From positions 1 to 64,000 of IMG/VR virus record IMGVR_UViG_3300009502_001749: 64,000 bases of DNA; one strand, given 5' to 3'. The DNA comes from a virus. A program made the position numbers and the translations under genes. Positions 1,362-62,691 of this stretch are shown piece by piece. The stretch's first letter is position 1. Every line of letters begins with the position of its first letter. Under the pieces are notes generated by a model that did not search any database, was not told the origin of the DNA, and saw only the letters and a list, made by a program, of their open reading frames with translations.

Positions 1362-1946
1362 ATGGAAGAACAGAAAAAAGTAGTAGAAAATAAACCAGTA
1401 GATTTTATTTCTAGACAACAGAGACGTCAGCAAGAAAGAGAAGATGAAAAATATAATAAAATGATGAAGAAACAATTAGCAGCAATGGCTACAAAAGGTG
1501 ATTTGATGATGTTAGTTGAAGCCTTTAATAAATTAAGAGATCGTTTATTTCAGATGGATATAATAAATTCAGCATTAGAAAAGATTATAATTAATAAAGG
1601 TTTAGCAACAAGAGATGAAATTATGGTAGCTGTTAAATGTGAAGCAGACAGAGCAATGAAAATGAAAGAAGTAAATGATGAAAAAGAAAATTATGAAAAG
1701 AGACTTGAGACTTGTTTGGAGTTTGATATTGATCCAAATTTTACTAGTGTTCCTTTACAGATTTTTCAGGATACTAATTTAACAGTTGATCAGAAAAGAG
1801 ATCTTGCCGTTAAATATAATTTAGAAACAGTTTTAGAAAAATTACCAAAAGAAGAAAGTAAAGAAGTAATTGAACAAAAAGAAAAGATTGTTAAATTGTT
1901 AGATGAAATTAAACCAAAGGAAGAAAAAGAAAAATGTTTGATTTAG
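1362..1946 (+). CDS. Hypothetical coiled-coil protein
   Basis: GGAGG before ATG 1362; charged helical sequence. Confidence 0.6.
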   Translation: MEEQKKVVENKPVDFISRQQRRQQEREDEKYNKMMKKQLAAMATKGDLMMLVEAFNKLRDRLFQMDIINSALEKIIINKGLATRDEIMVAVKCEADRAMKMKEVNDEKENYEKRLETCLEFDIDPNFTSVPLQIFQDTNLTVDQKRDLAVKYNLETVLEKLPKEESKEVIEQKEKIVKLLDEIKPKEEKEKCLI

Positions 1947-4900
1947 TATTAGGTCATAGTAGTTTTTTGGGTCATACCGGGTATGCTCATCATTCAAGAG
2001 AATTTTTCACTGAATTAAATAAACGTATTCCAGTTCGTATTAGAAATTTTGCATATGTTGATAATCTTGATTATTTAACACAAATTCAAAAAGATATGGT
2101 GATTTATCAGAAGTGGAATAATGCACCATATGAAGTTGGAACACCTTTTGAAAGAAATCCAAAAGATAAGGTTATTAATATAATTCTTAATGAAACTAAT
2201 CATTATTATTATTATGATAAATATGATGGTCCAAAGATTGCATATAATGTTTGGGAGAGCACTCTACAACCAGAACAATTTTTTAAGAAGTTGTTAGAGT
2301 TTGATCAGCTCTGGGTTCCCACCACTTGGCAACGTGATTGTTCGATTGGACAAGGTTTTCCAGCGGCGCGAGTTAAAATTATTCCAGAAGGAATTGATGG
2401 AAATAAATTTTGTCCTGGTGAGAGTGATATAGATTTAACTCAACTCAGAAAGGAAGAATTCAATTTCGTTCTATTTGGTCGCTGGGATAATCGTAAATCA
2501 ACAACTGAAATTATTAGAGCTTTTTTAAATGAATTTAAAGTAGAAGAACCAGTTAATTTATATCTTCATATTGATAATCCTTGGGGAGAAAGAATAGATG
2601 GATTTAAAACAACTCAGGAACGTATGGTTCATTATGGTTTTGATCCAAAACATAAAAGACTTATACTTCTTCATGGACTTGAAAATGCAGATAAAGATGA
2701 TTTATATATTAATTATTTAAGAAATGCTAATTGTTTTGTAAGTTGTGCAAAAGCGGAAGGTTGGAATATTCCATTGATTCAAGGAATTTCTGTTGGTACT
2801 CCAACAATATCCTCAAATTATGGAGCTCAATTAGATTTTGCCGGTGAAGCATCTCATCTTGTAAACATAAAAAAATATGTAAAACCTTATAAAGTTTTTA
2901 TGCAAGATGATAATACACCAGGATTAGTTGCTCAACCTGACTATGAACATTTACAATTTGTAATGAGAGATATTTATAATAATTATAATCAGTATAAACA
3001 AAAAGCTTTAGAAGATTCTATAATCATTAGAGAGAAATTTAGTTGGGAGAAAGCAGCTGATAAAGCTATGGTAGCACTTGAAGAACTTTATCAAACTTGT
3101 TATCCACCAAGAAAGAGACTTAATATTGGTTGTGGTAATGATATTAAAGATGGATATATTAATATTGATGAATTTGTTGAAAATAATAGTATTACAAAAA
3201 TGAGTATGCTTAATTTAGATTTTGCCGGTAATTTTATTGATGAAATATATACATCACATTCTCTCGAACATTTTGGTAAAGATGGAGTAAAACAAGTTCT
3301 TAAAGAATGTTATAGGGTATTAAAAACAGATGGTATTCTTAAAATTGAAGTTCCTAATCTTGAAAAAGTTTTACAGAATTGGTTAGATACAAAAGAAGAA
3401 GATAGATGGGGATTTCCTTTAGATACTATTTTTGGTATTCAAGATAATCCAGGTGAGTTTCATAAAACAGGATTTACGAAACAACATTTAATAGATACTG
3501 TTAAACAGGCTGGATTTGATATTGATGAAATTAATGATGTATATAGTCATGCACAAGATTGTATTGAATTAAAAGCTCATAAAATTAATATTAGAGATAA
3601 TAGTGTTATTATAGTTGATTGTTATCCTGATACTGATGAAAAACAAGATCTTTTAGTTAAACAAATTATTTATCTTAAACAGTTTGGTATGCCGCTTTTA
3701 TTAACTACCCATTATTCAGATATACCGAGAGAAATTATTGACTTAGTTGATTATATTGTTTATGATAGAAAAAACATTTTAAGTGATGATAGTATTGATT
3801 TTTTCTTTGTTATGAAAGATTTTATTAAAATTAAAAGTAAAGTATCAAAGAAATATCATTCAGTTGCAGTTCACACAAATCTTAAAAATGCTTTAAAGTT
3901 TTGTAAAGATAAATTTAGATATGCACATTTTATAGAATATGATACAAGTGTTGATTTTTCAAAACATTTGCAGATAGCTGAAAAATCTTTATTTGATGTT
4001 AAAGCTTGTATGTATTCTTATGATGAAGAACAAAAAGGAATCAGACAAATTTCAAATGATAATTCTATTATTGGATTAATAACAAATCTTATGTCATTTG
4101 ATATTAAGTGGTTTGATGATAATCTTGCCGATGTAAATTCATGGGAAGAATATAAAAATATTACTTTAGAATCATCAAAGAAACTCAATAAATATACAGA
4201 TTTAATTTATGAAAATTGGATGTATGATTATTTTAAATCCAATAATTTACTTAAAAATATTGGTGTAATTGATAATGAAACAAAAAATAAAATAATCAAA
4301 GAAAGAAGTAAAATAGTATCAGGAAAATTTGAAGATGATAATCTTATTATTTTATTATCAGAAACAAATCAACATGATGTTCTTATATTTGCAATAAACG
4401 ATTATAAAGATCATAAAGTTGATTATAGATTTACATGTAATGGAAAAGTTACAGAAGGACAAGTACCAACAAATGGATTTGCATATTATGTTGCAAATAA
4501 AATAGACAAAGTTCAAGTTATGCTTGATACTAAAGTAACAGATTTAGAATTTGATTATACAAAATTATACAGTTTAACAACTAGATTTAAATTTGTTGAT
4601 GATAGAATTAAATGTTTTGAATGGACAGAAAATGATGATAATGGATTTACAGTTAAAAAAGATGTTCCAGTTAGTGTAAAATATCATTTTGTTGATGGAG
4701 CATTTGTTGAAATATTAGGAAATAATGAAGAATCAAAAGATTATACTGTTGAATTTATAGATCAAAATGATAATAATAAAATAATATTTTCAACAAATAT
4801 ATCACCTAATAATTGGACAAGACCTAATTTAAAATATTTTATAAACTGGAAAACCCTTGTAAAACATAAAAATAAAATAATATTTGAACATTTATATAAC

Positions 4901-5755
4901 GCAAAAGATAAAAGAATATTAATAAATATAGATAGCAAAGCTCTGGGTGACACTATTGCTTGGATGCCTTATCTTGATGAATTTAGAAAGAAACATGAAT
5001 GTAAAGTTATTGCAACAACATTTTGGAATACACTTTTTAAAGATACTTATCCAGAAATTGAATTTTTTGAACCTGGACAATCTTTTAAAGATTTATATGC
5101 ACAATATATTGTTGGTGTATTTGATGGTGATTATAATCATAATAAAATTCACTGGAGATCTGGTCCATTACAAAAAGTTGCTTCTGATATTCTTGGTTTA
5201 GATTATAAAGAAGTTATTCCAAAAATTTCAGTTGTTAAAAAAGAAAGAGAAATTAAAGAAAAGTATGTTGCTATATCACAACATAGTACTTTTCAATGTA
5301 AATTTTGGATACACGCTAAAGGATGGCAATTCATAATTGATTATTTGAATAGTATAGGATATAAAGTTGTAGTTGTATCTTTACAAAAACCATTAGATAT
5401 TATTAATGTTGTTGATTATACAGGAAGATCAATTCCAGACACTATTAATATTATTAAAAATTCAGAGTTTTTTATAGGAGTTAGCTCTGGTTTATCTTGG
5501 TTAGCTTGGGCATTAAACATTCCAACAATTTTAATTTCTGGTTATAGTTCTGAATGGGCTGAAATGAATGAAACGGAAAAAGCTATTAGAGTTATAAATA
5601 AAAATGTATGTAATAGTTGTTGGCAAGATATAAGTTTGCCAATAGATCGTGGTAATTTTAATTGGTGTCCTAGAAATAAAGATATGGAATGCACAAAAGA
5701 AATAACTTCACAGATGGTAATTGAAGCAATAGAAAAAATAAAGGATAAGAAATGA
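1934..5755 (+). CDS. Multidomain glycosyltransferase: GT4-like + class I SAM methyltransferase + Aah/TibC-type O-heptosyltransferase (GT9-like)
   Basis: HTGYAHHSRE..YNVWEST..AEGWNIP (GT4); LNIGCG..SHSLEH..LKIEVPN (MTase); SKALGDTIAW, FIGVSSGLSWLAWAL, VCNSCW..WCP..MECTKEIT (autotransporter heptosyltransferase with Cys cluster). Confidence 0.8.
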   Translation: MFDLVLGHSSFLGHTGYAHHSREFFTELNKRIPVRIRNFAYVDNLDYLTQIQKDMVIYQKWNNAPYEVGTPFERNPKDKVINIILNETNHYYYYDKYDGPKIAYNVWESTLQPEQFFKKLLEFDQLWVPTTWQRDCSIGQGFPAARVKIIPEGIDGNKFCPGESDIDLTQLRKEEFNFVLFGRWDNRKSTTEIIRAFLNEFKVEEPVNLYLHIDNPWGERIDGFKTTQERMVHYGFDPKHKRLILLHGLENADKDDLYINYLRNANCFVSCAKAEGWNIPLIQGISVGTPTISSNYGAQLDFAGEASHLVNIKKYVKPYKVFMQDDNTPGLVAQPDYEHLQFVMRDIYNNYNQYKQKALEDSIIIREKFSWEKAADKAMVALEELYQTCYPPRKRLNIGCGNDIKDGYINIDEFVENNSITKMSMLNLDFAGNFIDEIYTSHSLEHFGKDGVKQVLKECYRVLKTDGILKIEVPNLEKVLQNWLDTKEEDRWGFPLDTIFGIQDNPGEFHKTGFTKQHLIDTVKQAGFDIDEINDVYSHAQDCIELKAHKINIRDNSVIIVDCYPDTDEKQDLLVKQIIYLKQFGMPLLLTTHYSDIPREIIDLVDYIVYDRKNILSDDSIDFFFVMKDFIKIKSKVSKKYHSVAVHTNLKNALKFCKDKFRYAHFIEYDTSVDFSKHLQIAEKSLFDVKACMYSYDEEQKGIRQISNDNSIIGLITNLMSFDIKWFDDNLADVNSWEEYKNITLESSKKLNKYTDLIYENWMYDYFKSNNLLKNIGVIDNETKNKIIKERSKIVSGKFEDDNLIILLSETNQHDVLIFAINDYKDHKVDYRFTCNGKVTEGQVPTNGFAYYVANKIDKVQVMLDTKVTDLEFDYTKLYSLTTRFKFVDDRIKCFEWTENDDNGFTVKKDVPVSVKYHFVDGAFVEILGNNEESKDYTVEFIDQNDNNKIIFSTNISPNNWTRPNLKYFINWKTLVKHKNKIIFEHLYNAKDKRILINIDSKALGDTIAWMPYLDEFRKKHECKVIATTFWNTLFKDTYPEIEFFEPGQSFKDLYAQYIVGVFDGDYNHNKIHWRSGPLQKVASDILGLDYKEVIPKISVVKKEREIKEKYVAISQHSTFQCKFWIHAKGWQFIIDYLNSIGYKVVVVSLQKPLDIINVVDYTGRSIPDTINIIKNSEFFIGVSSGLSWLAWALNIPTILISGYSSEWAEMNETEKAIRVINKNVCNSCWQDISLPIDRGNFNWCPRNKDMECTKEITSQMVIEAIEKIKDKK

Positions 5756-6180
5756 AAGAAGTAATAGTTATAACATCAGGATATTTTGATCCAATACATG
5801 TTGGACATTTAGAATGTTTAGAACTTGCTAAACAATTAGGAGATAAATTAATTGTAATTTTAAATTCTGATAAAGCTGCTATAAGAAAGAAGGGTTATTT
5901 TTTTATGCCTTCAGAAGAACGTGCTAAGATTCTTGCCGCTATTAAATATGTTGATATTGTTTGGAAATCTATTGATACAGATATGTCTGTTAAAGAATCA
6001 ATAAGAGATATTCATTCACATTTTAAAGATAATTATTTAATATTTGCAAAAGGTGGAGATGTATTTAAAGATAATATTATTGAAAAAGATTTATGTGAAG
6101 AATTAGGAATTAAAATTATTGATAGATTGGGTGAAAAAATCCAGTCAAGTTCAGAATTAGTTAAAAAGATAAAGAAATAG
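5752..6180 (+). CDS. Cytidylyltransferase-like nucleotidyltransferase (RfaE domain II / TagD family)
   Basis: SGYFDPIHVGH (HxGH), FAKGGD, KIQSSS. Confidence 0.8.
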   Translation: MKEVIVITSGYFDPIHVGHLECLELAKQLGDKLIVILNSDKAAIRKKGYFFMPSEERAKILAAIKYVDIVWKSIDTDMSVKESIRDIHSHFKDNYLIFAKGGDVFKDNIIEKDLCEELGIKIIDRLGEKIQSSSELVKKIKK

Positions 6181-6627: not shown

Positions 6628-7722
6628 ATGCCTAAATATTTGAATGAAGCAAGTTATCCAATTTTTTACGGTGGTACAACATTTGTACCTGGAAAACCAA
6701 TTGAAACATTAGATGTTATAAATAATGAAGCTTTTGTATTTGGAACAGTTGGAGAAACTTATGCTATAGTTGCTGGTGTGAATGATAGTTTGTTAATTAG
6801 ATTTAATAATGAGACTGTTTTGACAACAGTAACACTTACAGCTGGAGTAGCACAAACAATAGATAATGTTGTAACAGATATTAATACTGCCTATGGTTAT
6901 ACTGTTGCATATAATGAAGGTGGAAGACTTAAGATAGTTGCTCCAAAAAGAGAGTCTGATATATCTGCTGTTTGGATAGAAAATACTAATGGAACGGCAA
7001 ATGCTACATTGGGTTTAATCGGACATGATTGTAATCCATCTGGTTTAGTGGCAATAAAAGCTTTTATTAATTCAACAAAATTATCAACATTTAATATTAC
7101 AACTGCTAACAATAAATTCATTTTTAAATTTAATAGTGATGATTGGATAACAGTTACATTAACTGTTGGAGCGGCAAGAACTGCACAAGAAATTGCCGAT
7201 GAAATTAATACTGCATATAGAATTGCTACTGGAAAATTTGAAATTGTTGCAAAAGCTGTTGAACTCATAACTGGTGGTGGAGATATTGTATTACAATTAA
7301 TTTCACCAGTTGTTAGCAATTATACATCATCAGTTTTTATCAGAACATTAAACAATACAGCTCTTACAGTTCTTGGATTTGATAGTGATGATAAATTACC
7401 TTTAGTTAGTAATGGTTATCCACAACTAACTATGCAAGAGATCTTGCCGTTATATAATCCTCTTGTATCATACACATTATTAACTTTCCCTGGAGCTGGT
7501 CTTACAACTTTTTATACAAATGCTGGTGTTACTGCTTTTGAATTTATTAGAGTAACTGGTGCTGCTGTTAATATTTTCATTGAAGATGTTCATAATCTCC
7601 CACCTATTAATTTAGCAGTTGGTGAAAAGATAACTATTGAACATAAAATTGCAAGAATTAACAAATTTATATTTCAGTCTTTGGGAGCTGGTACAATTAC
7701 AATTTTGGAATTAAATAATTAA
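6628..7722 (+). CDS. Putative virion structural protein with two internal repeats
   Basis: Repeated TVTLT.G.A.T...I...INTAY motif. Confidence 0.5.
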   Translation: MPKYLNEASYPIFYGGTTFVPGKPIETLDVINNEAFVFGTVGETYAIVAGVNDSLLIRFNNETVLTTVTLTAGVAQTIDNVVTDINTAYGYTVAYNEGGRLKIVAPKRESDISAVWIENTNGTANATLGLIGHDCNPSGLVAIKAFINSTKLSTFNITTANNKFIFKFNSDDWITVTLTVGAARTAQEIADEINTAYRIATGKFEIVAKAVELITGGGDIVLQLISPVVSNYTSSVFIRTLNNTALTVLGFDSDDKLPLVSNGYPQLTMQEILPLYNPLVSYTLLTFPGAGLTTFYTNAGVTAFEFIRVTGAAVNIFIEDVHNLPPINLAVGEKITIEHKIARINKFIFQSLGAGTITILELNN

Positions 7723-7745: not shown

Positions 7746-8528
7746 ATGGAAGATGAAAGAATTTATATTGGTAGAGGTATGGGAACATCTGGAACAAGTG
7801 GAACTGGAACTAGCGGAAGTTCTGGTACATCTGGAACAGGAATAACAAGCGGCAGTTCAGGAACATCTGGTTCTAGCGGTTCTTCTGGAAGTTCAGGCAC
7901 TTCTGGTTCTAGTGGAACATCTGGAAGTTCAGGATCATCAGGTTCTTCCGGAACATCAGCAACTTCTGTAACATCTGGTAGTTCTGGAACAAGTGGTAGC
8001 TCTGGAACAAGTGGTAGCTCTGGAACAAGTGGTTCTTCAGGCACTAGTGGTTCTTCAGGAACAAGTGGAGCAATAGGTACTGGTGGCAGTTCAGGAACAT
8101 CTGGTAGTAGCGGTTCTTCTGGAACATCTGCAACATCAGTAACATCAGGTTCTTCTGGGGCTAATGGTTCTTCTGGGGCTAATGGTTCTTCTGGTACAAG
8201 TGGAAGTTCTGGTACTTCAATTGTAAATATTAGTTTAAAATATTATGATTATGATCAAGCTGTTGCTGATGATGCATCTTTTGATCTTCCTGCAATTACA
8301 AATGTTGGAAATGGTTGGGTTATAGCTGGTCAGAATCAAGAAAGAAGTTGGTTTGTTGTAGGTCCAGTTGGTACAGTTACATTAATAAATAATACAACAA
8401 ATGTTATTGCCGGTGCAGATACAAATGGTAAATTTTGTATTGGAACAGCTGAATCTCAAGAACCATTAACAATTAAGAATAGACTTGGTTCATCTATGAA
8501 TGTAATGTTACAGATGTGGTATGATTAA
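7746..8528 (+). CDS. Ser-Gly-Thr (SGTSGS) repeat fibre-like virion protein
   Basis: About 145 residues of Gly-every-third-residue SGT/SGS repeats. Confidence 0.6.
   Translation: MEDERIYIGRGMGTSGTSGTGTSGSSGTSGTGITSGSSGTSGSSGSSGSSGTSGSSGTSGSSGSSGSSGTSATSVTSGSSGTSGSSGTSGSSGTSGSSGTSGSSGTSGAIGTGGSSGTSGSSGSSGTSATSVTSGSSGANGSSGANGSSGTSGSSGTSIVNISLKYYDYDQAVADDASFDLPAITNVGNGWVIAGQNQERSWFVVGPVGTVTLINNTTNVIAGADTNGKFCIGTAESQEPLTIKNRLGSSMNVMLQMWYD
7782..8219 (+). repeat. Coding tandem repeat (SGTSGS)n, degenerate 9/18-bp units
   Basis: e.g. TCTGGAACAAGTGGTAGC repeated at about 7983-8035. Confidence 0.85.
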
Positions 8529-8546
8529 TTTTAGGAGGTTTTATTT

Positions 8547-9488
8547 ATGAATTTACCACCTTATGGAGATGATAATAAACGTGTATTAGCTCATTTTGGA
8601 GTTCTTAGGGTTTCTCCTCAAGATGTTCCAAGTATGACTGTGAAAGTTTCACCTGGAGGGTTCTGGTACTACACTAGTACTGGACCAGTATATACTGAAT
8701 TTGCTGGTGGTAATTCACCAACGATAAGTGCTCCAGGTACTAATGCAAAATGGGTAATGGTTGTTTTAAATTCTTCTTGTCAAATTGTTTTAATTGATGG
8801 TACCATTAGTTCACATCCTCAGATACCAACAATTCCAAGAGGAAGAATAATTCTCGCTGCAGTATATGTACAAACAGGAACAACAAAAATTACAAGCGAT
8901 ATAATTTTTGATGTTAGAACTTTATTTGCTCAATTTCCAACTGATCATAGAGATTTAGCTGGAACATCCGAGGTATCAGCACATCCAATATCTTCTATTA
9001 TTGATCTACAAACAACTTTAGACACATTAGTAACAGAAACAACTTTAGATTCAGAATTAGAATCTAAAGCTGATCAAACTGGTACTAATGAAACTTCTTT
9101 TATTTTAAATAAAGATTTTATTGGTACTCCTGCATCAAATGTTGAAATTTTAGTTGAAAGAGGTAGTGAATCTAATGTTGGTATTAAATGGAATGAAACT
9201 TTAGATCAATGGCAAGTTACTTCTGATGGAACAACTTGGAATACATTTGGTTCAGTTATGACAAGTGGATCTTCTGGAAGTTCCGGAACATCAGGTTCTA
9301 GCGGCACGAGTGGAAGTAGTGGAACATCTGGAAGTAGTGGAACATCTGGAAGTAGTGGAACATCTGGAAGTTCCGGAACAAGTGGTACATCTATGACCGG
9401 AGGAACTTCAGGAACATTTAGTATGACAAGTGGTGGAACAATTATTGTTCTTGATGGATTAGTTACGTCAATTTCAGGACCACCGTAA
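8547..9488 (+). CDS. Putative tail fibre/virion protein with C-terminal SGTSGS repeat; paralogue of 9570
   Basis: MNLPPYGD..KRV, VERG...NVGIKW shared with the next gene; repeat at about 9261-9425. Confidence 0.6.
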   Translation: MNLPPYGDDNKRVLAHFGVLRVSPQDVPSMTVKVSPGGFWYYTSTGPVYTEFAGGNSPTISAPGTNAKWVMVVLNSSCQIVLIDGTISSHPQIPTIPRGRIILAAVYVQTGTTKITSDIIFDVRTLFAQFPTDHRDLAGTSEVSAHPISSIIDLQTTLDTLVTETTLDSELESKADQTGTNETSFILNKDFIGTPASNVEILVERGSESNVGIKWNETLDQWQVTSDGTTWNTFGSVMTSGSSGSSGTSGSSGTSGSSGTSGSSGTSGSSGTSGSSGTSGTSMTGGTSGTFSMTSGGTIIVLDGLVTSISGPP

Positions 9489-9511: not shown

Positions 9512-9543
9512 ATCGGCAAGATCTGAAATAAAATCTTGCCGAT
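9512..9543. repeat. Conserved intergenic palindrome, copy 1
   Basis: ATCGGCAAGAT-CTGAAATAAA-ATCTTGCCGAT. Confidence 0.9.
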
Positions 9544-9569: not shown

Positions 9570-10463
9570 ATGAATATTCCGCCTTATGGAGATAGTTATA
9601 AAAGAGTAGGAGCTTATTTTTCAAATCTACAAGTTTCAGCAAAATCAACACCAAATATGACAGTTAAAATATCAGCTGGTGGTTATTGGTATTATTCAGC
9701 AACAGGAGCTACATATGTAGAATATGTTGGCGGAAGTTCTCCAACTATTACAGCTCCAACAGGTACTGGTAATGCAAAGTGGGTTATTATAGCAATGGGA
9801 CCAAGTGGAGTTGTTTCCAATATTGATGGTGCAGCTGCTTCAAATCCTGTTTTACCAACGGTTCCTGGAAGAGCAAGAATACCTCTTGCTGCTATTTATA
9901 TTCAAACTGGAACAACAACAATTACAAATGATATGATTTATGATGTTAGACCAATGTTTCCATTGGAAGTAAGAGATCATAGAGATTTAGAAGGATTAAC
10001 ATCAACAGGTTCACATCCAATTTCTGCAATCTCAAATCTTACTGAGACTATTGCTAATCTTGTTACATCTTCAGCATTAACAACACTTCTTGCCGATAAA
10101 GCAGATCAAGATGGAACAAATGATACTACTTTTACTTTAAATAAAGATTATAGTGGTGCTCCTGCTTCAGATTGTTTATTTGAAGTTGAAAGAGGTAGTG
10201 GTGATAATGTTGGTATTAAATGGCATGAAGATATATCAAAGTGGCAATTTACTGATGATGGAACAAATTGGATAAATTTTGGAGATCTTTTTATAAATAC
10301 AGGAACACAAGAATTGAATATGTTAGTATATTCACAGAATGCAGAACCAACTTTGACAGTTGGAAATGTAGCGTTATGGATAGATACTAACAATTCAGAT
10401 AAAGTGTATTTGATTTATAGTAGGGGCTCTGCAGATCAAGTAAAAGTTGAATTAACTCAGTAA
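9570..10463 (+). CDS. Putative tail fibre/virion protein; paralogue of 8547
   Basis: Colinear similarity to 8547 over about 235 aa, different C-terminus. Confidence 0.6.
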   Translation: MNIPPYGDSYKRVGAYFSNLQVSAKSTPNMTVKISAGGYWYYSATGATYVEYVGGSSPTITAPTGTGNAKWVIIAMGPSGVVSNIDGAAASNPVLPTVPGRARIPLAAIYIQTGTTTITNDMIYDVRPMFPLEVRDHRDLEGLTSTGSHPISAISNLTETIANLVTSSALTTLLADKADQDGTNDTTFTLNKDYSGAPASDCLFEVERGSGDNVGIKWHEDISKWQFTDDGTNWINFGDLFINTGTQELNMLVYSQNAEPTLTVGNVALWIDTNNSDKVYLIYSRGSADQVKVELTQ

Positions 10464-10615: not shown

Positions 10616-11308
10616 ATGGCTAATCAAGAAATTGATAGTTTATCAAAATCTTGTTCAATTTCAGGTTGTACTGGTAAATATAAAGCTAAAGGGTTTTGCG
10701 GAAGACATTTACAACAAATTTATAAATATGGAGAAATTATAAACATTGGAAGAAGTAAATTAGATTCTAATGAAATTATTATAGAAAATAATATAGCTAA
10801 AATGAAATTATATGATCATAATGGAAATCAAATTGAAGAGACTATTTTTGATTCTAAATATGTTAATATCATATCACAATATAAATGGCATTTATTTACA
10901 TCAACAAAATATGTTGGTGGTGGTTGGAAAGATAATGATGTTTGGAAAGATATGTTATTACATAGATTTTTATTATATTTAGAAGATGGAAAATTTGATA
11001 CTGAAGTTGATCATAAAGATGGAAATAGATTAAATAATTTAATTAGTAATTTACGTAGATGTACTATTCAACAAAATAATCAAAATGCTAAGAAAACATC
11101 AAAAATAACATCTAGTAAATATAAAGGTGTTAATTTTTCTACGTATCATATGAAATTTAAAGCTTCCATTTCCGTTAATAAAATAAGTATATATTTAGGA
11201 ATTTTTTCATCAGAAATTGATGCAGCTAAAGCTTATAATGAAGCTGCTATAAAATATTTTGGTGAGTTTGCTTGGTTAAATAAATTTGAAGAGGTGAATC
11301 AATTATGA
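10616..11308 (+). CDS. Free-standing HNH endonuclease with AP2 DNA-binding domain
   Basis: LHRF..VDHKDGNRLNN..SNLR..QN (HNH); SKYKGV..YLGIF..EIDAAKAYNEAAIKYFGEFA (AP2); N-terminal CSISGC..GFCGRH. Confidence 0.9.
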   Translation: MANQEIDSLSKSCSISGCTGKYKAKGFCGRHLQQIYKYGEIINIGRSKLDSNEIIIENNIAKMKLYDHNGNQIEETIFDSKYVNIISQYKWHLFTSTKYVGGGWKDNDVWKDMLLHRFLLYLEDGKFDTEVDHKDGNRLNNLISNLRRCTIQQNNQNAKKTSKITSSKYKGVNFSTYHMKFKASISVNKISIYLGIFSSEIDAAKAYNEAAIKYFGEFAWLNKFEEVNQL

Positions 11309-47665: not shown

Positions 47666-47699
47666 TATCGGCAAGATCTGAAATATGATCTTGCCGATA
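47666..47699. repeat. Conserved intergenic palindrome, copy 4
   Basis: TATCGGCAAGATC-TGAAATAT-GATCTTGCCGATA. Confidence 0.9.
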
Positions 47700-47724
47700 A
47701 AATTTGGAGGCGAAAAGAAAATTT

Positions 47725-49280: not shown

Positions 49281-50583
49281 TTTATATGTTGATGAAGTAG
49301 CATTTATTAGTCATATGGAAGAAATTTATGGGAGCGCACAACAAACACTTTCAAGTGCAAGAGACCAAGCTATAAAGAATGATTATCCTTACTTTATTTT
49401 AATGACTTCAACTCCAAATGGTGTTGAAGGTGATGGAAAATTCTTTTATGATTTTTGGACTAATGCAGTTGAATCAGATGATATTTTTGAAGAAGATCCA
49501 GAAAATGGAATGGAAGATTGGAAACCAGATATATCAGGTCTTCTTAATCAAGCAGATAGAAATAGTTTTATAAGAGTTAAATATCATTGGTCTGAAAATC
49601 CAGATAAAACTATGGCTTGGTATGAACAACAAAAGAAAGAACTTAACTTTGATCTTAGAAAAATAAACCAAGAATTAGATATTCTTTTTGTTGGTGGAAC
49701 AAATTGTATTTTTACTGATGAAGTTTTACAAAAATTAACTTATATACCCAGAACTAATTATATTGAACTTTCAAATCAAGTTCAATTTGATATGTATGGA
49801 GAAATTGATGAACAAGATTATCTTTTAGTTGGAGTTGATACAGCAAGTTCAATTAAAGGAGCTTTTAATGCTATAGAATTGTTTTCTTATAGAGATTTTA
49901 TCCAGTTAGGTGAAGCTAATATTCGTTTGGGTTCATTAACTAAATATGGTGAAACAGTTGATTCATTATTTAGAAATTTATATAAAACAACTAAGAGAAT
50001 ACTTCTTTGTATAGAAAATAACTCAATTGGTAAAGCTGTTATTGAACATTTAATTTATCATGTTAAAGATTTTAATTATATGCCTTTTATATATAAAGAA
50101 AAGAAATTGGATATGACAGATAAAGATGAATTTGGAATATCAACAACAGGTCAATCAAAAGAATTAATGGTTTCACTTTTTTATGATCATATTAATCAAA
50201 ATCCAGGATGTTTAAAGTCACAGAATTTGATTGCTCAGTTAGGTACAATACAAAGATCAAATCGTGGTACTGTTAAAGGTTCTGGTTATAGTGATATGTT
50301 TATGTCTGGTAGTTTTTGTGCATATGTTAGGAATAAAACTTATCTAGATATTTTGCCGCTATTAGGACAATCAAATAAACAAGTACAAGATACATTTTTT
50401 AACTCAGTAAAAACAGCTGCTGAAATGATGAATGTTAAATTAATTATTAAAAATTCAATTCAACAAGAAACAGGATATTTATCTATTGAAGAAGATAGAT
50501 ATAGAGATGAAGAAGCAAGACATGAACATGATACAATAATGGATGAAGATTGGAGAGTGTTTATACCTATTTTAACACCATAG
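49281..50583 (+). CDS. terL: Terminase large subunit, exon 2 (spliced product 618 aa)
   Basis: LYVDE, TSTPNG, GVDTA, IENNSIG, SDMFM. Confidence 0.9.
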
Positions 50584-50593: not shown

Positions 50594-53500
50594 ATGCCTA
50601 ATTATGCAAATCCTCATTTAGGATTAAATGATAATTTATTAAAGATGCAATTAAAGGCACAAGCTGCCGCTAGAGATTCAGAACAACAAAAAGGTGCTTA
50701 TACGAGACAAGGATATAATGAAGGTGGAATGACTGCCGCTAATGAAATGATTTATCGGCAGTTTCAGAAAAATATTGGTAAAGTTCAGGGTAATAAAGCT
50801 TTTATGGCTGCTTCAATTGCTTTACCAATGGCAGTAGATTATTCAAAAGATATTAGTAAGTTGATTGGTAAAATAAGCGGAAAAGAATTATCAACAAATA
50901 TTGCAGAAACGATGGGTAAAATGGGAGCAATGTTTTATCTTATGCCATCAGCAATGAGTAAAGTTCTTCAATCTAAAAGGGATTCTTTTGAAAAGAATTT
51001 TTCAAGAGAACTTGGTAAAGTTGGAACTGCTTATAAAGTTCTTAATCTTTTGAATCTTATGAGATATCCAATGAGAACTTTACCAGCAGGTTTAGCAATG
51101 TTAGCTGGATTTTCTGGTAAAGGTGTAGGAATAAGACCAGAACAGATTATGGCTGGATTAGGTTTAGCAACTGGAGCTTATAAAGGTGCAAAAGCTGCTG
51201 CTGGATATGGTATTGGAGCTGCTGGTGGACTAGTTAATAAAGTAACTGGTGGAGCAGCTGGAAGAACAGTTGATGCTGTTACTGGAACACAACTTGGTGG
51301 AGCTTCTGCTGGATTAATAAAGAAAGTTTTTGGAGGAGTAGATTCAAAAATTTTATCAATACTTGGTTCACCAATGGGTCTTTCTTTAGCTCTTGCCGGT
51401 GCAACAGTAGGATTATCGATATTGAAATCTATTAAACTGTCAAGATTATTACCATCTAGAAAATCTCCAATGAATTTAGAAAGACAATATTCTGATAGTT
51501 TAGCTTTCGATTCTGTTTTAAATAATTTAACTTCAAGACTTGCTTCTGGTACAATAAAAACAGATCAAGGTATATTAGAATCTAATTTAATAATTGCTCA
51601 AGCATCAATACTTACTGAAAGACATACAAGTCTATTGAGATTAATGGCAGTTGAAACAGAATATAAGAGTCAAGAACGTGAAAAACAAGGTCGTTCATAT
51701 AGTATTGATGTACTTGGTCAAGATCCAGCTGGAATGATTTCACAAGGATTAAATGCAATAACAGGACGTTTACATCATACGATTGCAAAATATGATCCGA
51801 TAACACAAATGTTAAACTTCATATTTTCCGGTGGTAAATTAAGACCAATGGGAGAATTAGGAAGACTCGAAAAAACATATGGTATTGGGATGTATGGAAA
51901 AATTGTAAAAGGTCATGCTAGTAATTTTGGTTTAAGTATGTCAGATGCTAGATTAACAACTATAAATTCAGATGAAGTATTACGTATGGGAATAAGTCAT
52001 GAAGATAGAATGGAAAAATTAGGTCAATGGCAAGGAGATCTCTTAAAAGGAATATATACTGAAAATATAACTCTTCGTACTGGTTTTGGTTTTAAGAAAA
52101 ATGTTTTTACTATACCACATGAAAATTTAATGAAATTTCTCAGAGGAATAAATCCTCTTAACTTACCAGGTATTCATGCTATAAGTAGTTTAGTTCAAGC
52201 CCCATTTAGAGCTGTTAATGCAGTTAGTAGAGGTATTACAAATACAATTGGTTTACATCGTGGACCTGGTGGAATTCTTGGTGCAGTAAAAAATATGTTA
52301 AGACCAGGTGGACCAGATCAATTAGCATTAGGCGGTCCTGGTGGTCCTGCTTTACCAGTTAGAATAATGGGTAAAGGTGGTCCATTTAAGAAATTTTCCC
52401 CTTTCATTGCTGGAGATCAAGGTCCAGAATTGATTTTTCCTAAAAATGATGGAAGAGTTGCTCCACATCGGGAAGTTAGAAATAATCTCGCAAAAGCTTT
52501 ATTTTTAAGAAACAGAACTCTTTCTCAAGAACTTAATGAAGTTTCAGTTGGAAAAGAAAAAGCTGCAACAACTAAACATCAAGGTGATGTTAGTGAATTA
52601 GTAAAATACATGAAACAAGAGAGAACTGCAGGAGCTATTAAAGGTATTATTGGTGGAGCTGGTGGATTAGTTTATAGAGGTGCTGATAAAGCATTTTCTG
52701 CCGGTAAAGGTTTCTTATCATCTGGATTAGGTTTTATTGGTGATATTTTTAAAGGTTTATTAAATTTTGTTGTTCACAATCCTTTATTAACAATTGCAGG
52801 TGGTTTAATAACTTACATAGTTCCAACTTTAATTAAAAAATTAACAGATAAATTCAGTATCAATTGGGATGCTATTCAAGGTAAAATTGGCGACATGATG
52901 AAAGGAGCATTAGATCTATCAAATACTCCTATCGGCAAATATGCTTCTATTGGTTTTGCTATGGGTATTCCTTATGGTGTAACTCCAGGTATTATGGGAG
53001 CTATGGTTGGTGGTGGTCTTGGTGGATTTATTACATTAATGGCAAAAATTAAAGAGAAAGATCCTGATAACATCTGGAAGAAACTACTTGAAGGTGGAAT
53101 GTTAGAGAAAGTTGAACAAGGTGGTTTTGCTTTAGGCGGTGCATTATTAGGATTAAAATTAGGTACAATGGTAGGTGGACCAATTGGTGGTATCGCTGGA
53201 AGTTTACTTGGTGGTGGATTAGCTTGGTATCTCTCACTTTTAAAACAAGATAAAGTAAAACCTGGGTGGGAAGGATTTAAAGAAGTTGCAACTGCTATTT
53301 GGGAAACTGCAAAAATTAATCTTGAAGCTAATCCAATAATTGGTAGACTTGCTGGAATAGGTTTTCTAGCTGGTGTTCCTTTTGGCTTACCAGGTATGAT
53401 TGCTGGAAGTTTACTTGGTGGTGGTCTTGGAGTTTATTTATCATTTTTTAGAACACCTGAAGAAAAAGAGAAAGATGATATATGGAAAAAATTATCAAAT

Positions 53501-55283: not shown

Positions 55284-55324
55284 AATTATCGGCAAGATCT
55301 TTAAATTAGATCTTGCCGATAATT
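55284..55324. repeat. Conserved intergenic palindrome, copy 5
   Basis: AATTATCGGCAAGATCT-TTAAATT-AGATCTTGCCGATAATT. Confidence 0.9.
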
Positions 55325-55345
55325 ATTAGTAGGAGGCGAAAAAAG

Positions 55346-59751: not shown

Positions 59752-60648
59752 ATGGATTTTGCATCAAACAGTACAAAAAAAGTTGTATCAAATTCTTTAT
59801 TAAAAGCTTTCATATCAAGATATGTTGCAGAAGATTTTTTTACAAATATTGCAAGAATAATTCTTTATCCATCTGATTTTGGTAATTTTATTTCAGATAG
59901 AACAAATTCTGTAATTGATTATATGCAAGAATTTTTAAAGAGTTTATCAATTTTTTCTGGTAAATTACAACTGCAAAATACTAAAGTTGTTAGAAGTCAA
60001 ATTGCTATTTTAAGTTCTTTATTAACAATTAGAGAAACAAGTCCAATTTTATTAACTTATGATAATGTGAATCAACATTTAATGCCAGGACAAGATTTAA
60101 TTGTTACTAAACTTATTCAAAAATGTGTTGATGAAAGAATTACTGATCCTGATGAATTTAGAAAAATTACAGATGAAATTATCAGTACAATTTCTTCTTA
60201 TTATGAAATGATGTCAGCTTCAGATAGTATTACTATGGTTGGGAATCTTTATGATTTGATTAATGAAGGTAATCTTGTGCCGATGGAAACATTAAAAAGT
60301 TATAAAGATGTTATTAATGTTGCATATAACGATTTATCTAAATTACAATCTTTAAGTAAAGCTGAAACAGCTGCAGATTATTTTGTTATTTCAGATGATA
60401 AGTCTTGTGATGCATTATCAAAAACATTAGTTAATTATGTGTCAAAAGGTTTTTCAGTATTTAAAACTGGTTTTGATTTATTTGATAAATATATTAATGG
60501 AATTGAAAGTTCCAGCGTACATTTGATAGGGGCTCCGAGCAACCACGCTAAGAGTTTGTTTACGATTAATCTCTCATATAGAATGATAAAAAATAATCTT
60601 GCCGATTTCGATAAACAAGATTGTATATTATTTGTAACATTAGAAGAT
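59752..60648 (+). CDS. dnaB: DnaB-like replicative helicase, exon 1
   Basis: KTGFDLFDKYING, GAPSNHAKS (variant Walker A), LFVTLE. Confidence 0.8.
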
Positions 60649-61632
60649 TTAGTTAATAACTAACTTTGTCTCTTTTACTGGTGACAGTAATTGAAAAAAT
60701 CCGGTGAATTCAGGGAACATCCTAGTAATAGGACAATCCTGAGCCAAGCTTTAAATCTTGCCGCTAACAAGATTTATTGAAGGTGCAACGACTATCCCGA
60801 AAGGGAGTACACTCAAGCGAGTGGAAGCGCCGGACATCTTGAGAAATTTAATATTATGGAGTTATTAAAATGTTTAATGAAATGAATTACCCAGAAAAAT
60901 ATATTATAAGATTTTGGGACAAAGTAAATGTTCCAAAAGATTGGGCTGAAAAAGATCAATGTTGGAAATGGAATGGACTTTTATTTATAAAAACTAATTA
61001 TGGAAGTTTTTCTTTTAATGGTAAAAATCTTAAAGCTCACAGATTCTCATATGAAATTCATTATGGTCCAATTCCTGAAGGATTAGATGTTATGCACAAA
61101 TGTGATAATCGAAAATGTGTAAATCCAAATCATTTAAAAGTTGGTTCCAGAAAAGAAAATATGGAAGATTGTGTTGAAAAAGGAAGATCAAAATTTGGTT
61201 CTAAAAATAATATGTCTAAGTTAACAGAAAATAATATTATAGATATTATTAATAAAAGTTTAAATGGAACATATACAAATAGAAATCAAGTTATTAATGA
61301 TTATAAAATATCATTATCAGAACTTTCAAATATTCTTTGTGGAAAAAGATGGACACATATAACTTCTAATTTTACACAACAAGAAATTGAAAAAGTAAAA
61401 TATTTATTAGGATGTAGGTTATCAATAGAAGATATTGCTGATATAAAAATGAGATTAGATAAAGGTGAATCACAAAGTTCAATAGCTAGAAGTTATAATA
61501 TATCTCAACCGGTAATATCAAATATGATAAAATTTATAAAACTCAAGATGATGAGATAGTCTAATCTTATAGGTAACTATAAGCAGTCTAATAAGACGGG
61601 TAGGGAGTAGCGATCTCTATTGAATAAAAATG
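60649..61632 (+). mobile_element. Group I intron (984 nt) with HNH gene in P8, in dnaB
   Basis: Core nearly identical to the terL intron; P1 AGAT/GTCT; terminal G 61632; splicing gives TLED-DIYKLIRRF. Confidence 0.9.
60870..61559 (+). CDS. Intron-encoded HNH homing endonuclease
   Basis: CWKW..YG..AHR..HKCDNRKCVNPNHL..G...EN; HTH-like C-terminus. Confidence 0.9.
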   Translation: MFNEMNYPEKYIIRFWDKVNVPKDWAEKDQCWKWNGLLFIKTNYGSFSFNGKNLKAHRFSYEIHYGPIPEGLDVMHKCDNRKCVNPNHLKVGSRKENMEDCVEKGRSKFGSKNNMSKLTENNIIDIINKSLNGTYTNRNQVINDYKISLSELSNILCGKRWTHITSNFTQQEIEKVKYLLGCRLSIEDIADIKMRLDKGESQSSIARSYNISQPVISNMIKFIKLKMMR

Positions 61633-62613
61633 GATATTTACAAATTAATTCGTAGGTTCGCGTCAATATATGGAAATTATAAATTTGAATCTTTAAAAAG
61701 ATTATTTTCAAAATCATATGAAATGACAAGAGCAACACAAATAATGGACATGTCAACTGAAGCAAGTTCAAGATTGTATAATAATTTAGACGGGATGTTT
61801 AAAAATGTTTTAAAAACAAGTATTGCTAAAGTAACACAAGGTAAAGTTAATATAGCAATTAAACATTGTTCAGAGAATTCGTTTTCTCCTGGTGATTTAG
61901 GAAGATTTATAGATCGTTTGAATATTGAAGGTTATAAGATTAAGATGGTCTTTGTAGATTACTTAGATGTTATGTCTGCGACAATTAACAGATTTGGTGG
62001 AGCAGGGAAAGAATATGATATACTCGGTCAGATCACACAAGAACTTCGTAACTTAGCTCGTATACATAAAGTACCAATAATAAGTCCTACACAGAATAGA
62101 AGAGAGTCAGAGAATGTAAGCACAAAACTAAGTAATGAACAAACTGGTGATTCATATAAAAAAATCAGATATTCGGATTTTATATATTCATGTAGATTAA
62201 GACCAGATTTAGATTTTCTATCTGAAGGAGTTAGACATCATGTGATTCCAACAAAAGTAAGTCCAGATGGAACAATTGCAGATTTTATTTCTCCAGAACT
62301 TATAAAACTTAAAGAAAGCTTATTTAGAGTATTAGTACCTTTTGAAGTTAAAATTACAAAGTCAAAAGATTCAGAAAAAGATTCAACAAAATTTTTCTTA
62401 TTTTGTAAAGAAAATTTGAGAATGTATAATAATGTAGATGAATATATTAAAGATGCTCCTGTTCTTGTTGCTAATAGTGAAAAGTTAGAGAAAGATATTG
62501 CTATATTAACTGAATTAGCTATTACAAGTGTTTCAAGTGGAATTAATGAATTTTTTGATAATGATCAGAGTGATATTGAATTTGGTGATATTCCAAATGT
62601 TGTTTTTGGATAA
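61633..62613 (+). CDS. dnaB: DnaB-like replicative helicase, exon 2 (spliced product 625 aa)
   Basis: VFVDYLD, ELRNLA....VPIISPTQNRR, GDSYKK..SD, ITKSK. Confidence 0.85.
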   Translation, partial: DIYKLIRRFASIYGNYKFESLKRLFSKSYEMTRATQIMDMSTEASSRLYNNLDGMFKNVLKTSIAKVTQGKVNIAIKHCSENSFSPGDLGRFIDRLNIEGYKIKMVFVDYLDVMSATINRFGGAGKEYDILGQITQELRNLARIHKVPIISPTQNRRESENVSTKLSNEQTGDSYKKIRYSDFIYSCRLRPDLDFLSEGVRHHVIPTKVSPDGTIADFISPELIKLKESLFRVLVPFEVKITKSKDSEKDSTKFFLFCKENLRMYNNVDEYIKDAPVLVANSEKLEKDIAILTELAITSVSSGINEFFDNDQSDIEFGDIPNVVFG

Positions 62614-62658
62614 TGGAGATTAATATGAAAAAAGATCCAACAGAAGATTAATATTTTA

Positions 62659-62691
62659 ATCGGCAAGATTTAGAAATAAGATCTTGCCGAT
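62659..62691. repeat. Conserved intergenic palindrome, copy 6
   Basis: ATCGGCAAGAT-TTAGAAATAAG-ATCTTGCCGAT. Confidence 0.9.

Follow-up and report, generated by a model that had tools for sequence, protein, structure and literature searches.

A short DNA word repeated in the genes and intergenic hairpins of a freshwater jumbo phage subclade, a putative recognition signal

In uncultured freshwater jumbo phages of ~260-285 kb, which have their own multisubunit RNA polymerase, the octamer TCTTGCCG is enriched beyond what codon and amino-acid constraints produce and recurs in the arms of hairpins between genes. We put roughly even chances on the reading that the octamer is a DNA-level word private to one phage subclade, with hairpins that are used a second time as RNA. 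Under this reading, the word would be favored wherever it fits, and its intergenic inverted pairs would double as RNA hairpins. The window analyzed here is the first 64 kb of an 87.8-kb record, which is a genome fragment that is ~31% complete.

Octamer enrichment and the 13-nt unit

The window contains 29 matches to TCTTGCCG on both strands together versus 0.18 expected, and none of 100 dinucleotide shuffles attained that count. Over the whole 87,836-bp record, the octamer is the top over-represented 8-mer relative to a first-order Markov expectation, with 26 copies on the + strand and 11 on the - strand versus 0.12 expected per strand. Every CTTGCC on the + strand of the record lies within TCTTGCCG (26 of 26). 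A preliminary description of this DNA had claimed strong over-representation, which these counts bear out, and all 16 of the + strand copies and both of the - strand copies (7172 and 26716) that it listed were found. Its estimate of ~27% GC was low, as the measured content of the window is 28.9%. It had also treated the palindromes as a separate matter, when in fact the hairpins consist of the same word: six hairpins supply 11 of the 29 matches, as their arms, and the rest are the following copies, with G001 denoting a syntenic relative.

1802-1809, + strand: isolated copy, sense, read as T-CTT-GCC-G, in 1320-1946; the G001 ortholog is AACTTGCTG
4123-4130, + strand: isolated copy, sense, Leu-Ala, in a 1273-aa glycosyltransferase fusion gene
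5931-5938, + strand: isolated copy, sense, Leu-Ala, in a cytidylyltransferase-like gene (5752-6180)
7172-7179, - strand: isolated copy, antisense in 6628-7722; orthologous position kept in G001
7442-7449, + strand: isolated copy, sense, the sole xTC-TTG-CCG reading; G001 has TTTTGCCG
10088-10095, + strand: isolated copy, sense, Leu-Ala, in 9570-10463
12329-12336, + strand: isolated copy, sense, Leu-Ala, in 11874-13502
17793-17800, + strand: isolated copy, antisense in a VWA-like - strand gene (16633-17973; Pfam DUF2201); kept in G001
23798-23805, + strand: isolated copy, sense, Leu-Ala, in a DUF5661 gene (23628-24071); kept in G001
26716-26723, - strand: isolated copy, antisense in 25947-26825
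39748-39755, + strand: isolated copy, sense, Leu-Ala, in 39065-41221; G001 has ACTTGCCG
45181-45188, + strand: isolated copy, sense, Leu-Ala, in a 1075-aa tail-fibre-like gene; G001 has TCTTGCTA
45580-45587, + strand: isolated copy, sense, Leu-Ala, in the 1075-aa tail-fibre-like gene
46051-46058, + strand: isolated copy, sense, Leu-Ala, in the 1075-aa tail-fibre-like gene
48377-48384, + strand: copy within the group I intron interrupting the terminase gene; its paralog is the copy at 60756
51391-51398, + strand: isolated copy, sense, Leu-Ala, in a 1561-aa tail protein gene; G001 has TCTTGCTG
60597-60604, + strand: isolated copy, sense, Leu-Ala, in helicase exon 1; G001 has TCTTGCTG
60756-60763, + strand: copy within the group I intron interrupting the helicase gene (Rfam Intron_gpI, 73 bits)

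The preliminary description had correctly placed the 17793 copy antisense within the vWA gene and had found the octamer in both HNH introns, which are the group I introns with the copies at 48377 and 60756. The sequence surrounding the two intron copies is near-identical, and therefore they count as one event.

A 13-nt unit, AGATCTTGCCGAT, has the octamer as its invariant core. The minimal core is TTGCCG; its GCCG is strict, the four bases preceding GCCG are tolerant, and (A/C)T follows. Variants at octamer positions 1-4 are still 2- to 12-fold enriched, while variants of GCCG occur at expectation, and the presumed precursor TCTTGCTG occurs at 1.1-fold with no depletion. The 97 isolated copies compared from four genomes have hairpin-arm flanks, with A at -3, G/A at -2, A at -1, A/C at +8 and T at +9, and no other conserved position was detected within 40 nt; a nearby partner for the isolated copies was not found either.

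Coding constraint, turnover, spacing and strand

The enrichment within genes was evaluated by shuffling synonymous codons inside each gene (300 rounds), which preserves every protein and the codon usage of each gene. Coding DNA of this record contains 15 sense and 4 antisense copies versus 0.49 and 0.64 expected from the shuffle; the corresponding counts are 26 and 23 versus 1.6 and 1.3 for one relative and 34 and 22 versus 1.7 and 2.4 for another. The residual excess in the three genomes is 12- to 30-fold for sense and 6- to 18-fold for antisense copies. Loss of enrichment in such a shuffle had been named beforehand as the outcome that would refute a DNA signal, and the enrichment persists. 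In coding DNA, the top hexamers are TTGCCG and CGGCAA, with 224 and 201 occurrences versus 43 and 34 expected. The octamer had been called frame-independent, which is wrong for the sense strand, where 12 of 13 coding copies share the frame xxT-CTT-GCC-Gxx and encode Leu-Ala. Antisense copies of TCTTGCCG use all frames, and the codon shuffle fails to reproduce the excess, which together uphold the earlier view that the octamer is a nucleic-acid signal rather than a protein motif. Where a protein provides a T|Leu-Ala|G context, CTT-GCC was chosen 12 of 35 times versus 0.36 expected. The word occupies 6-21% of protein-permitted positions overall and about half of those in the rarest tripeptide frames, and rare tripeptides appear to be accepted to host it. 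Such isolated intragenic copies, on both strands at a steady and unusually even density, would be maintained by selection that acts directly on the DNA, for the most part by way of synonymous codons.

Individual copies turn over. Only 3 of ~16 isolated copies are common to the window and G001, and the remainder differ by point changes, such as GCT/GCC. The density of the word is ~0.1-0.3 per kb and is alike in conserved and lineage-specific genes. Copies are also evenly spaced: among ~560-577 equally frequent hexamers, TTGCCG and CGGCAA rank first or second for low spacing variability on each strand, with coefficients of variation of 0.78-0.84 versus a control mean of 1.15-1.19. The mean spacing per strand is 2.3-4.9 kb for TTGCCG(A/C/G)T and 1.9-2.8 kb for bare TTGCCG.

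The strand bias reported for the window is real, as isolated copies are distributed 17:2 between the + and - strands, but complete relatives show far less of it (30:20 and 39:22), and it is limited to the arm that the window samples. In the arm with genes on the + strand, the octamer prefers that strand ~3:1, and in the opposite gene arm of complete relatives the ratio is ~1:1. The earlier term "polar" is only partly supported, as the pattern is neither a KOPS-like sign flip nor a uniform polarity. A genome-wide signal, selected at the nucleotide level on both strands, is supported. Within the structural arm, sense copies are in excess, which a pure DNA-level word alone leaves unexplained.

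Hairpins between genes

Inverted pairs of the AGATCTTGCCGAT unit form 10 intergenic hairpins in the record and ~25 in each complete relative. The 64 hairpins from five genomes typically start 6-25 nt past a stop codon, and gene junctions with a hairpin include 8 convergent and 0 divergent junctions (Fisher p = 0.006). The six hairpins of the window are as follows.

9512-9543, + strand: arms CGGCAAGA at 9514 and TCTTGCCG at 9534; 25 nt past the stop of 8547-9488 and 28 nt ahead of the start of 9570-10463; RNA fold -17.1 kcal/mol, z -5.3
16594-16628, no strand assigned: convergent junction between + strand genes ending by 16580 and the - strand gene 16633-17973; both strands stable (-22.2 and -21.8 kcal/mol)
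43234-43265, + strand: imperfect hairpin with 5' arm CGGCAGAATCT and 3' arm AGATCTTGCCG, flanked by 41997-43226 and 43287-44411; the octamer is in the 3' arm alone, at 43256
47666-47699, + strand: immediately 5' of large terminase exon 1 (47704-48288); -22.7 kcal/mol
55284-55324, + strand: longest of the hairpins (perfect arms of 17 nt), separating the genes for the 1561-aa tail protein and a 760-aa virion protein; -25.3 kcal/mol, z -9.6
62659-62691, + strand: 3' of DnaB-like helicase exon 2 (61630-62613); -18.1 kcal/mol

The G001 ortholog of the imperfect hairpin is perfect. Fold energies of the hairpin RNAs range from -17 to -25 kcal/mol, and covariation is seen in the outer stem, with a core that is unchanged throughout. 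GNRA-type loops are in transcript orientation 23 times versus 4 times in the other (p = 3e-4), and stem mismatches (26 G-U versus 15 C-A) weakly favor the RNA orientation. Like intrinsic (Rho-independent) terminators, the hairpins are stable, contain G/C and lie a few bases past the stop codon, also at convergent junctions. Unlike those terminators, their stem sequence is invariant rather than merely complementary, and none is followed by a U-tract, which indicates that the hairpin is not a canonical terminator and leaves position and loop orientation as the basis for a role at transcript 3' ends. We propose that inverted pairs in short spacers directly 3' of genes would fold in the transcript as very stable hairpins that may mark or protect 3' ends or separate cistrons. 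The hairpins are the positionally conserved half of the phenomenon, which probably acts at the RNA level.

Owner clade, candidate readers and rival explanations

The word is confined to one subclade. Among the relatives examined, all those at a large-terminase identity of at least 56% have both word and hairpin, and those at 41-46% lack the octamer and uniform hairpins alike; three of the latter, analyzed over their full records, revealed no alternative word. Bacterial bins that hold such phage contigs are not enriched for the word, and in one 3.5-Mb bin at least 100 of 153 copies are on a single 257-kb phage contig. We infer that a single phage-encoded reader recognizes the word on DNA. Relatives encode possible private readers, i.e., pieces of the multisubunit RNA polymerase, a DnaG-type primase and HNH-AP2 endonucleases.

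In layout and evolutionary behavior, the word is a match for the DNA uptake sequences of bacteria (USS of Pasteurellaceae, DUS of Neisseriaceae), which are likewise asymmetric 9-13-nt words, ~100-fold enriched on both strands, with intragenic copies mainly in the least costly reading frames, intergenic inverted pairs that fold as hairpins at gene ends, and copies that turn over by point mutation while density is kept. However, the owner here is a lytic-type jumbo phage rather than a naturally competent bacterium, and the bacterial bins examined show no enrichment of the word. Uptake cannot drive a word that belongs to a virus, and since the phage lacks uptake machinery the driving process differs. 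Stoperators of cluster A mycobacteriophages, which are sites for the L5 gp71 repressor, are similar as asymmetric ~13-bp sites private to a phage group, with dozens per genome at ~one per 2 kb. Stoperators are mostly intergenic, keep a single orientation with respect to transcription and occur in temperate phages that have a repressor, whereas the phage word is mostly intragenic and enriched in both orientations, and no repressor or integrase was seen.

Tentatively, the reader may be a replication or recombination enzyme for which the word would supply a place to land or to start once per 2-3 kb of each strand, in lagging-strand priming or primosome loading. Primase sites of T7 gp4 are 3'-CTG-5', and ssiA and ssiB of RSF1010 are single-strand initiation hairpins. 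The phage word resembles such signals in its one-strand reading, strict in the 3' part and tolerant in the 5' part, primase sites in its presence on both strands at Okazaki-fragment spacing (1.9-2.8 kb per strand for the TTGCCG core), and ssi signals in its inverted hairpin pairs. Known DnaG-type primases, in contrast, read trinucleotides rather than 6-13 nt and require no enrichment, which counts against the priming reading; the phage word is enriched and longer, and its priming role is putative. A Chi-like nuclease control word and the site of a DNA-binding or nicking protein rank close behind priming.

The Chi-like alternative, which we regard as unlikely, supposes that a host or phage helicase-nuclease degrading linear DNA switches to repair mode at the word, with the phage selected for short regular intervals in both orientations and the orientation excess facing ends exposed in concatemer replication or packaging. 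Like Chi of E. coli (GCTGGTGG) and its counterparts, the phage word is short (6-8-nt core), asymmetric, the most over-represented of its length and spread over the genome with moderate orientation bias; its even spacing per strand and individual turnover at constant density also fit. Unlike Chi, its similarity spans the entire 13-nt hairpin arm, and we know of no Chi of that length. In addition, the second gene arm lacks orientation bias, and neither a PDDEXK_1 (RecB-type) nuclease nor a UvrD-type helicase was found in a 95%-complete relative. A host Chi, like a host uptake signal, is disfavored because the phage-carrying bacterial bins lack enrichment. Slightly less probable is a signal for the phage's own RNA polymerase or a polymerase-bound factor, in which an upstream complement would give hairpin-dependent termination without a U-tract, and a lone word would be a pause or polar block, e.g., against antisense or read-in transcription. 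Relatives do encode the polymerase subunits, the structural arm has a sense excess, and hairpins at gene ends with transcript-oriented GNRA loops and no U-tracts would need a sequence-specific substitute. Yet antisense enrichment nearly equals sense enrichment, with a 1:1 ratio in the second arm, mid-gene sense copies would stall expression of long essential genes, isolated copies have no second element at a fixed distance, and even spacing per DNA strand is not predicted.

We give the same low credence to sites for a sequence-specific phage DNA protein that acts in compaction, packaging or strand-specific nicking of the T5 kind, which would suit an asymmetric word with even spacing and a partial strand bias. 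Among concrete candidates for the reader are the HNH-AP2 endonuclease paralogs, since AP2 domains often bind short G/C-rich motifs (preprint 10.64898/2026.02.23.707548). HNH_3-AP2 genes number 1, 4 and 2 in three large word-bearing genomes and were not found in sister-clade fragments, but the correlation is weak because two smaller word-bearing fragments also lack them and the sister-clade contigs are incomplete; moreover, these genes are mobile, non-syntenic paralogs that do not adjoin the sites. It is very improbable that the hairpins are the sole functional element and that a mutational or gene-conversion bias copies the arm sequence onto near-matches. Isolated copies do match the entire arm, single point changes in near-matches create them, and their conservation between relatives is no higher than neutral. 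However, such even spacing per strand (among the most even of ~570 hexamers) is unexpected from mutation, the likely precursor is undepleted, donor homology would span just 13 nt, and rare tripeptides are apparently accepted. Least probable of all is a base-modification target, such as 7-deazaguanine at G residues of GCCG, which is conceivable since relatives G001 and G007 carry precursor genes (QueC, QueD, FolE2 and a precursor transporter). A DNA transglycosylase (TGT/DpdA) was not detected with a Pfam model or among PHROGs on neighboring genes, and modification gives no reason for 15- to 100-fold enrichment or even spacing.

An equally fitting interpretation of the sequence-invariant hairpin arms is that transcription is where the primary reader acts and that the isolated copies are secondary. 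The reader may also be encoded by the host. Taken together, the word looks like a putative recognition signal that belongs to the virus itself, distributed evenly over the two genome strands, both within genes and in the arms of intergenic hairpins.

Enrichment of the octamer and the lineage that carries it

The window contains 29 copies of the octamer TCTTGCCG (22 on the + strand and 7 on the - strand), where dinucleotide shuffles give an expectation of 0.18, and with 26 + and 11 - copies it is the most over-represented 8-mer of the whole record. On the + strand of the record, the hexamer CTTGCC is always found within the octamer and never elsewhere. A preliminary description, made by a model from the sequence alone, had located copies of the octamer and proposed a codon-preserving shuffle as a test that could refute their excess. 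Counting over the window returned every one of its coordinates, and when synonymous codons were permuted within each gene 300 times, the enrichment persisted in the source record and in two large relatives that carry the octamer, G001 and G007.

Octamers in coding DNA (sense / antisense), observed and as the mean of codon-preserving shuffles
Source record (G000): observed 15 / 4; shuffle mean 0.49 / 0.64
G001: observed 26 / 23; shuffle mean 1.6 / 1.3
G007: observed 34 / 22; shuffle mean 1.7 / 2.4

The top hexamers in coding DNA are the core of the word, TTGCCG (224 vs 43), and its reverse complement CGGCAA (201 vs 34), so that the two orientations are near-symmetric. The word is asymmetric, and its enrichment is approximately 100-fold, on both strands and both inside and between genes.

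The source record (87,836 bp, 28.8% GC), whose first 64 kb make up the window, has a CheckV completeness of 31% and is a fragment of a jumbo phage genome of ~260-285 kb. Syntenic homologs of 80 of its 105 ORFs, with 24-97% amino-acid identity (mostly 50-97%), are present in G001 (IMGVR_UViG_3300021520_000002; an IMG/VR contig of 285,572 bp, 95% complete), and the synteny maps to 18.7-114 kb of that genome. To the same group belong G007:C1 (CAZRCF010000001.1), a 256,708-bp contig inside a Lentimicrobiaceae bin, and two fragments, G002 and G003. Nine public sequencing runs contain the window, all of them lake or freshwater DNA metagenomes, and no RNA run is listed among them. T4-like phages and other large phages in culture have large terminases with only 20-24% identity to that of the record, which indicates that the record represents an uncultured jumbo-phage lineage. 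Genes of the relatives include multisubunit RNA polymerase pieces (Rpb2_6 and Rpb1 domains 1, 2 and 5 by Pfam), a family-B DNA polymerase, SSB, ribonucleotide reductase and a DnaG-type primase (phrog_47, 7e-12; at 163270-164229 in G001). Further features, among them three group I introns, are as follows.

Window 7746-9488: two neighbouring collagen-repeat proteins, downstream of a gene for a 1273-aa glycosyltransferase fusion and a cytidylyltransferase-like gene
Window 32985-33304: group I intron in a RecA/KaiC-like ATPase gene
Window 48289-49314: group I intron in the large terminase gene, with an HNH_3 gene
Window 60664-61629: group I intron between exons 59752-60663 and 61630-62613 of a DnaB-like helicase gene, with an HNH_3 gene and a ~90-nt stretch near-identical to one in the terminase intron
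G001, ~110-208 kb (L063-L068): ORFs with Pfam matches to Apyc1 anti-Pycsar protein (3e-28), RVT_3 (reverse transcriptase-like) and PDDEXK_5 endonuclease
G001:170900-174000 (L066:10928-13641) and G007:C1:158083-158709: 7-deazaguanine precursor genes (QueC, QueD/PTPS, YhhQ-type transporter), with FolE2 elsewhere and TGT/DpdA not detectable; the set may serve modification of either DNA or tRNA

Within this group, every examined relative with at least 56% terminase identity has the same hairpin core, formed by inverted intergenic pairs of octamer-bearing arms. Relatives at 41-46% identity lack the octamer and have ordinary, heterogeneous hairpins; the core hexamer is not enriched in three of four such records and is weakly enriched, by 2.5-fold, in the remaining one. 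The idea that these sister phages use a different word was rejected, as the same analysis of three sister genomes fetched whole revealed no alternative word (maximum z of 4-6, versus 15 in the source record). Eight small, uninformative genes are candidates for gain together with the word, the sister contigs covering the structural arm only.

We also considered whether the word is an uptake or Chi signal of the host, which was rejected because whole-bin counts place its excess on phage-like contigs. In a bin of 3.5 Mb that includes G007:C1 (257 kb), this contig carries at least 100 of the 153 word copies; the excesses in four other bins are no more than modest. A hairpin scan of 185,579 species genomes gave multiple matches only on low-GC contigs, which are binned into five different phyla and several of which encode homologs of phage proteins of the source record. 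As far as is testable in bins, the word is therefore without host enrichment. Lineage contigs are found inside species-representative bins assigned to Lentimicrobiaceae, 'Bacteroidetes', Nitrospiraceae, Patescibacteria and Geobacteraceae (G007:C1, and the L081-L159 loci of JAGVVH01, CAZFOG01, JALNZW01 and CAYSWG01), and their presence in several phyla probably reflects errors of binning. Contigs of this kind are easily recognised by the hairpin. In the literature, the motif strings are present only as primers in unrelated papers, and nothing relevant was found on jumbo phages and conserved stem-loops.

Frame, strand and extent of isolated copies

The preliminary description had called the octamer frame-independent, which fails on the sense strand, where 12 of 13 coding copies are read as Leu-Ala in the frame xxT-CTT-GCC-Gxx. 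In this Leu-Ala context CTT-GCC is picked 12 of 35 times, compared with 0.36 expected from codon usage, and antisense copies use all three frames. The octamer is present at 6-21% of the positions that the protein sequence permits, and at about half of those in frames needing rare tripeptides. On these three grounds the frame preference reflects cost and not a protein motif, and we agree with the earlier view on the latter point. The copies at 48377 and 60756 lie in introns whose surrounding sequence is near-identical and were counted as one event.

The strand bias described earlier is evident in the window, where isolated octamers (those outside hairpins) stand at 17:2 (+ : -), and shrinks to 30:20 in G001 and 39:22 in G007; it was 12:4 in G002 and 5:7 in G003 after these fragments were turned to a common orientation. 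The excess is confined to the + gene arm, which the window samples and in which sense:antisense ratios are 13:3, 10:6 and 13:3 across three genomes; the ratio in the other arm is ~1:1. The core hexamer stands at 121:85 (+ : -) overall in G001 and 100:63 in G007, with a + lean in most bins of both arms. Strand asymmetry is therefore real but moderate, with no clean assignment to either a DNA strand or the sense strand.

Across four genomes, 97 isolated copies carry the flanks of a hairpin arm (A at -3, G/A at -2, A at -1, A/C at +8 and T at +9) and no other conserved position within 40 nt, which indicates that they are single hairpin arms. Hidden hairpins at these sites were rejected, since 9 of 158 copies have a CGGCA partner no more than 60 nt away, versus 5.5 expected. 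Measured against the codon shuffle, enrichment persists in variants that differ at positions 1-4 (TTTTGCCG 6.7-fold, TCTCGCCG 11.8-fold), and any substitution in GCCG returns the count to expectation. A sigma-70-type promoter with TTGCCG as its -35 element was rejected, as neither a -10-like nor any other conserved position occurs at a fixed distance and promoter-like matches are at shuffle level.

Only 3 of ~16 isolated copies are common to the source record and G001 at orthologous positions. The remaining copies differ by point changes, typically GCT versus GCC, and not by insertions, which rejects the idea that they are relics of inserted hairpin arms. Word density is 0.1-0.3 per kb, with little difference between conserved and lineage-specific genes. 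In both G001 and G007, the spacing of TTGCCG and CGGCAA along each strand has a CV of 0.78-0.84 (control means 1.15-1.19), which ranks lowest or second lowest against ~560-577 equally frequent hexamers, with a mean gap per strand of 1.9-2.8 kb for TTGCCG. The near-symmetric antisense enrichment and the even per-strand spacing argue for recognition on DNA and not mRNA. A drive by very-short-patch-type repair was rejected, since the deamination product TCTTGCTG shows no depletion, and this lack of precursor depletion, along with the antisense enrichment and even spacing, argues against a purely mutational origin.

Intergenic hairpins

Of the 29 octamer copies in the window, 11 are arms of six hairpins, in which ATCGGCAAGATCT is followed by a loop of 7-10 nt and AGATCTTGCCGAT; the whole record has ten such hairpins. 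Unlike isolated copies, hairpins are mostly common to the record and G001 at orthologous positions. Among 64 hairpins from five genomes, the typical hairpin starts 6-25 nt past a stop codon and ends 15-35 nt before the next start; hairpins occupy 8 of 53 convergent junctions and 0 of 49 divergent ones (Fisher p = 0.006). The core is invariant while four base pairs outside it covary (the first as T-A, C-G or G-C, the second as A-T, T-A or G-C), and fold energies range from -17 to -25 kcal/mol. In the record and G001, a GNRA-type loop (GAAA or GCAA) is in transcript orientation in 23 cases versus 4 (p = 3e-4), which points to an RNA role of the hairpins. No U-tract follows the stem, where T frequency is 0.25-0.55, which indicates that the hairpins are not canonical intrinsic terminators; a terminator scan flagged one of the four window hairpins in the scanned stretch, on the opposite strand. 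Possible functions of the hairpins are termination of the phage's own polymerase, or the protection or processing of transcript ends. A ribosome-binding stretch, GGAGGCGAAAA, is conserved just after several hairpins (window 47700-47730, 55325-55345 and other sites), and TGGAGGCG is found on the + strand only (7 vs 0 copies), ~59-fold above expectation.

Comparison with known systems and candidate readers

Chi, KOPS and uptake sequences, all of them words spread over a genome, are known from bacterial chromosomes, where each is tied to a single machine. The combination of features here is that of bacterial uptake sequences (USS/DUS), yet owned by a virus. Like USS/DUS, the octamer is short and asymmetric and is enriched ~100-fold on either strand, within genes as well as between them, with intergenic inverted pairs forming gene-end hairpins and single sites turning over at constant density; unlike them, its owner is not a competent bacterial chromosome with an uptake receptor, and host enrichment is lacking. 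KOPS-like polarity, which the preliminary description had suggested, does not fit, as KOPS are confined almost entirely to one strand and change strand at the replication terminus, whereas the complete relatives show ratios of ~1.5:1 without a sign flip. Stoperators, the repressor sites of cluster A mycobacteriophages, keep one orientation to transcription in both arms, unlike the ~1:1 ratio in the second arm here. We read the octamer as a phage-private DNA word with a putative reader, and its signature is explained by no known machine.

Among candidate roles for such a reader, we favour priming or primosome loading, based on the strict 3' and tolerant 5' parts of the word, its recurrence every 2-3 kb on each strand and the fact that a primase is encoded. 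Like primase and primosome start sites, the word lies on both strands with Okazaki-fragment spacing (a mean gap of 1.9-2.8 kb for TTGCCG) that is more even than chance; a family search of the 95%-complete relative gave no match to a Prim-Pol primase. Chi-like nuclease control is our second candidate. Chi resembles the word in being over-represented and asymmetric within 5-8 nt. Chi is co-aligned with replication over the whole replicon; the octamer is ~3:1 in one arm and ~1:1 in the other. Family searches of the same relative gave no PDDEXK_1 or UvrD match that would represent RecBCD/AddAB-type parts. The E. coli Chi sequence itself, GCTGGTGG, occurs 8 times on the + strand and 0 times on the - strand of the whole record (0.21 expected), together with related GGTGG words, which probably reflects fibre and collagen-like genes whose coding is rich in Ala and Gly.

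The third candidate is a word at which the phage polymerase pauses or terminates. The hairpins resemble intrinsic terminators in being stable, in containing G/C and in lying downstream of genes, and differ from them in that the stem is not immediately followed by a run of U. In the 95%-complete relative, family searches gave no match to RNase III, TGT/DpdA transglycosylase or T7-type RNA polymerase (the last without a match in control genomes as well). The fourth candidate is a binding or nicking site, for which HNH-AP2 endonucleases are a concrete lead because AP2 domains favour short G/C-rich motifs (10.64898/2026.02.23.707548). One such gene lies in the window.

Window 10616-11308 (+): free-standing HNH_3-AP2 endonuclease gene, with non-syntenic paralogs (four in G001, two in G007)

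More specifically, though we hold this to be rather unlikely, the word could be an address code for a phage-encoded enzyme that works on DNA at regular intervals, either a long-site primase/primosome or an AP2-guided HNH nickase. If so, a jumbo phage would programme its own strand starts or nicks and distinguish its own DNA from that of its host.

A virus lineage has its own genome-wide word, with a signature as strong as that of uptake sequences, which comprises a 100-fold excess, use of up to a fifth of the silent opportunities and a spacing more even than that of any other hexamer. The hairpins are of separate interest because, in a phage with an RNA polymerase of its own, they appear to signal transcript ends in the absence of a U-tract. 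A reader, if found, would reveal either a new way in which large phages organise replication, recombination or packaging, or a way in which they mark self DNA. It would also allow metagenomic contigs, including several now inside bacterial bins, to be assigned to this lineage by a simple sequence marker.
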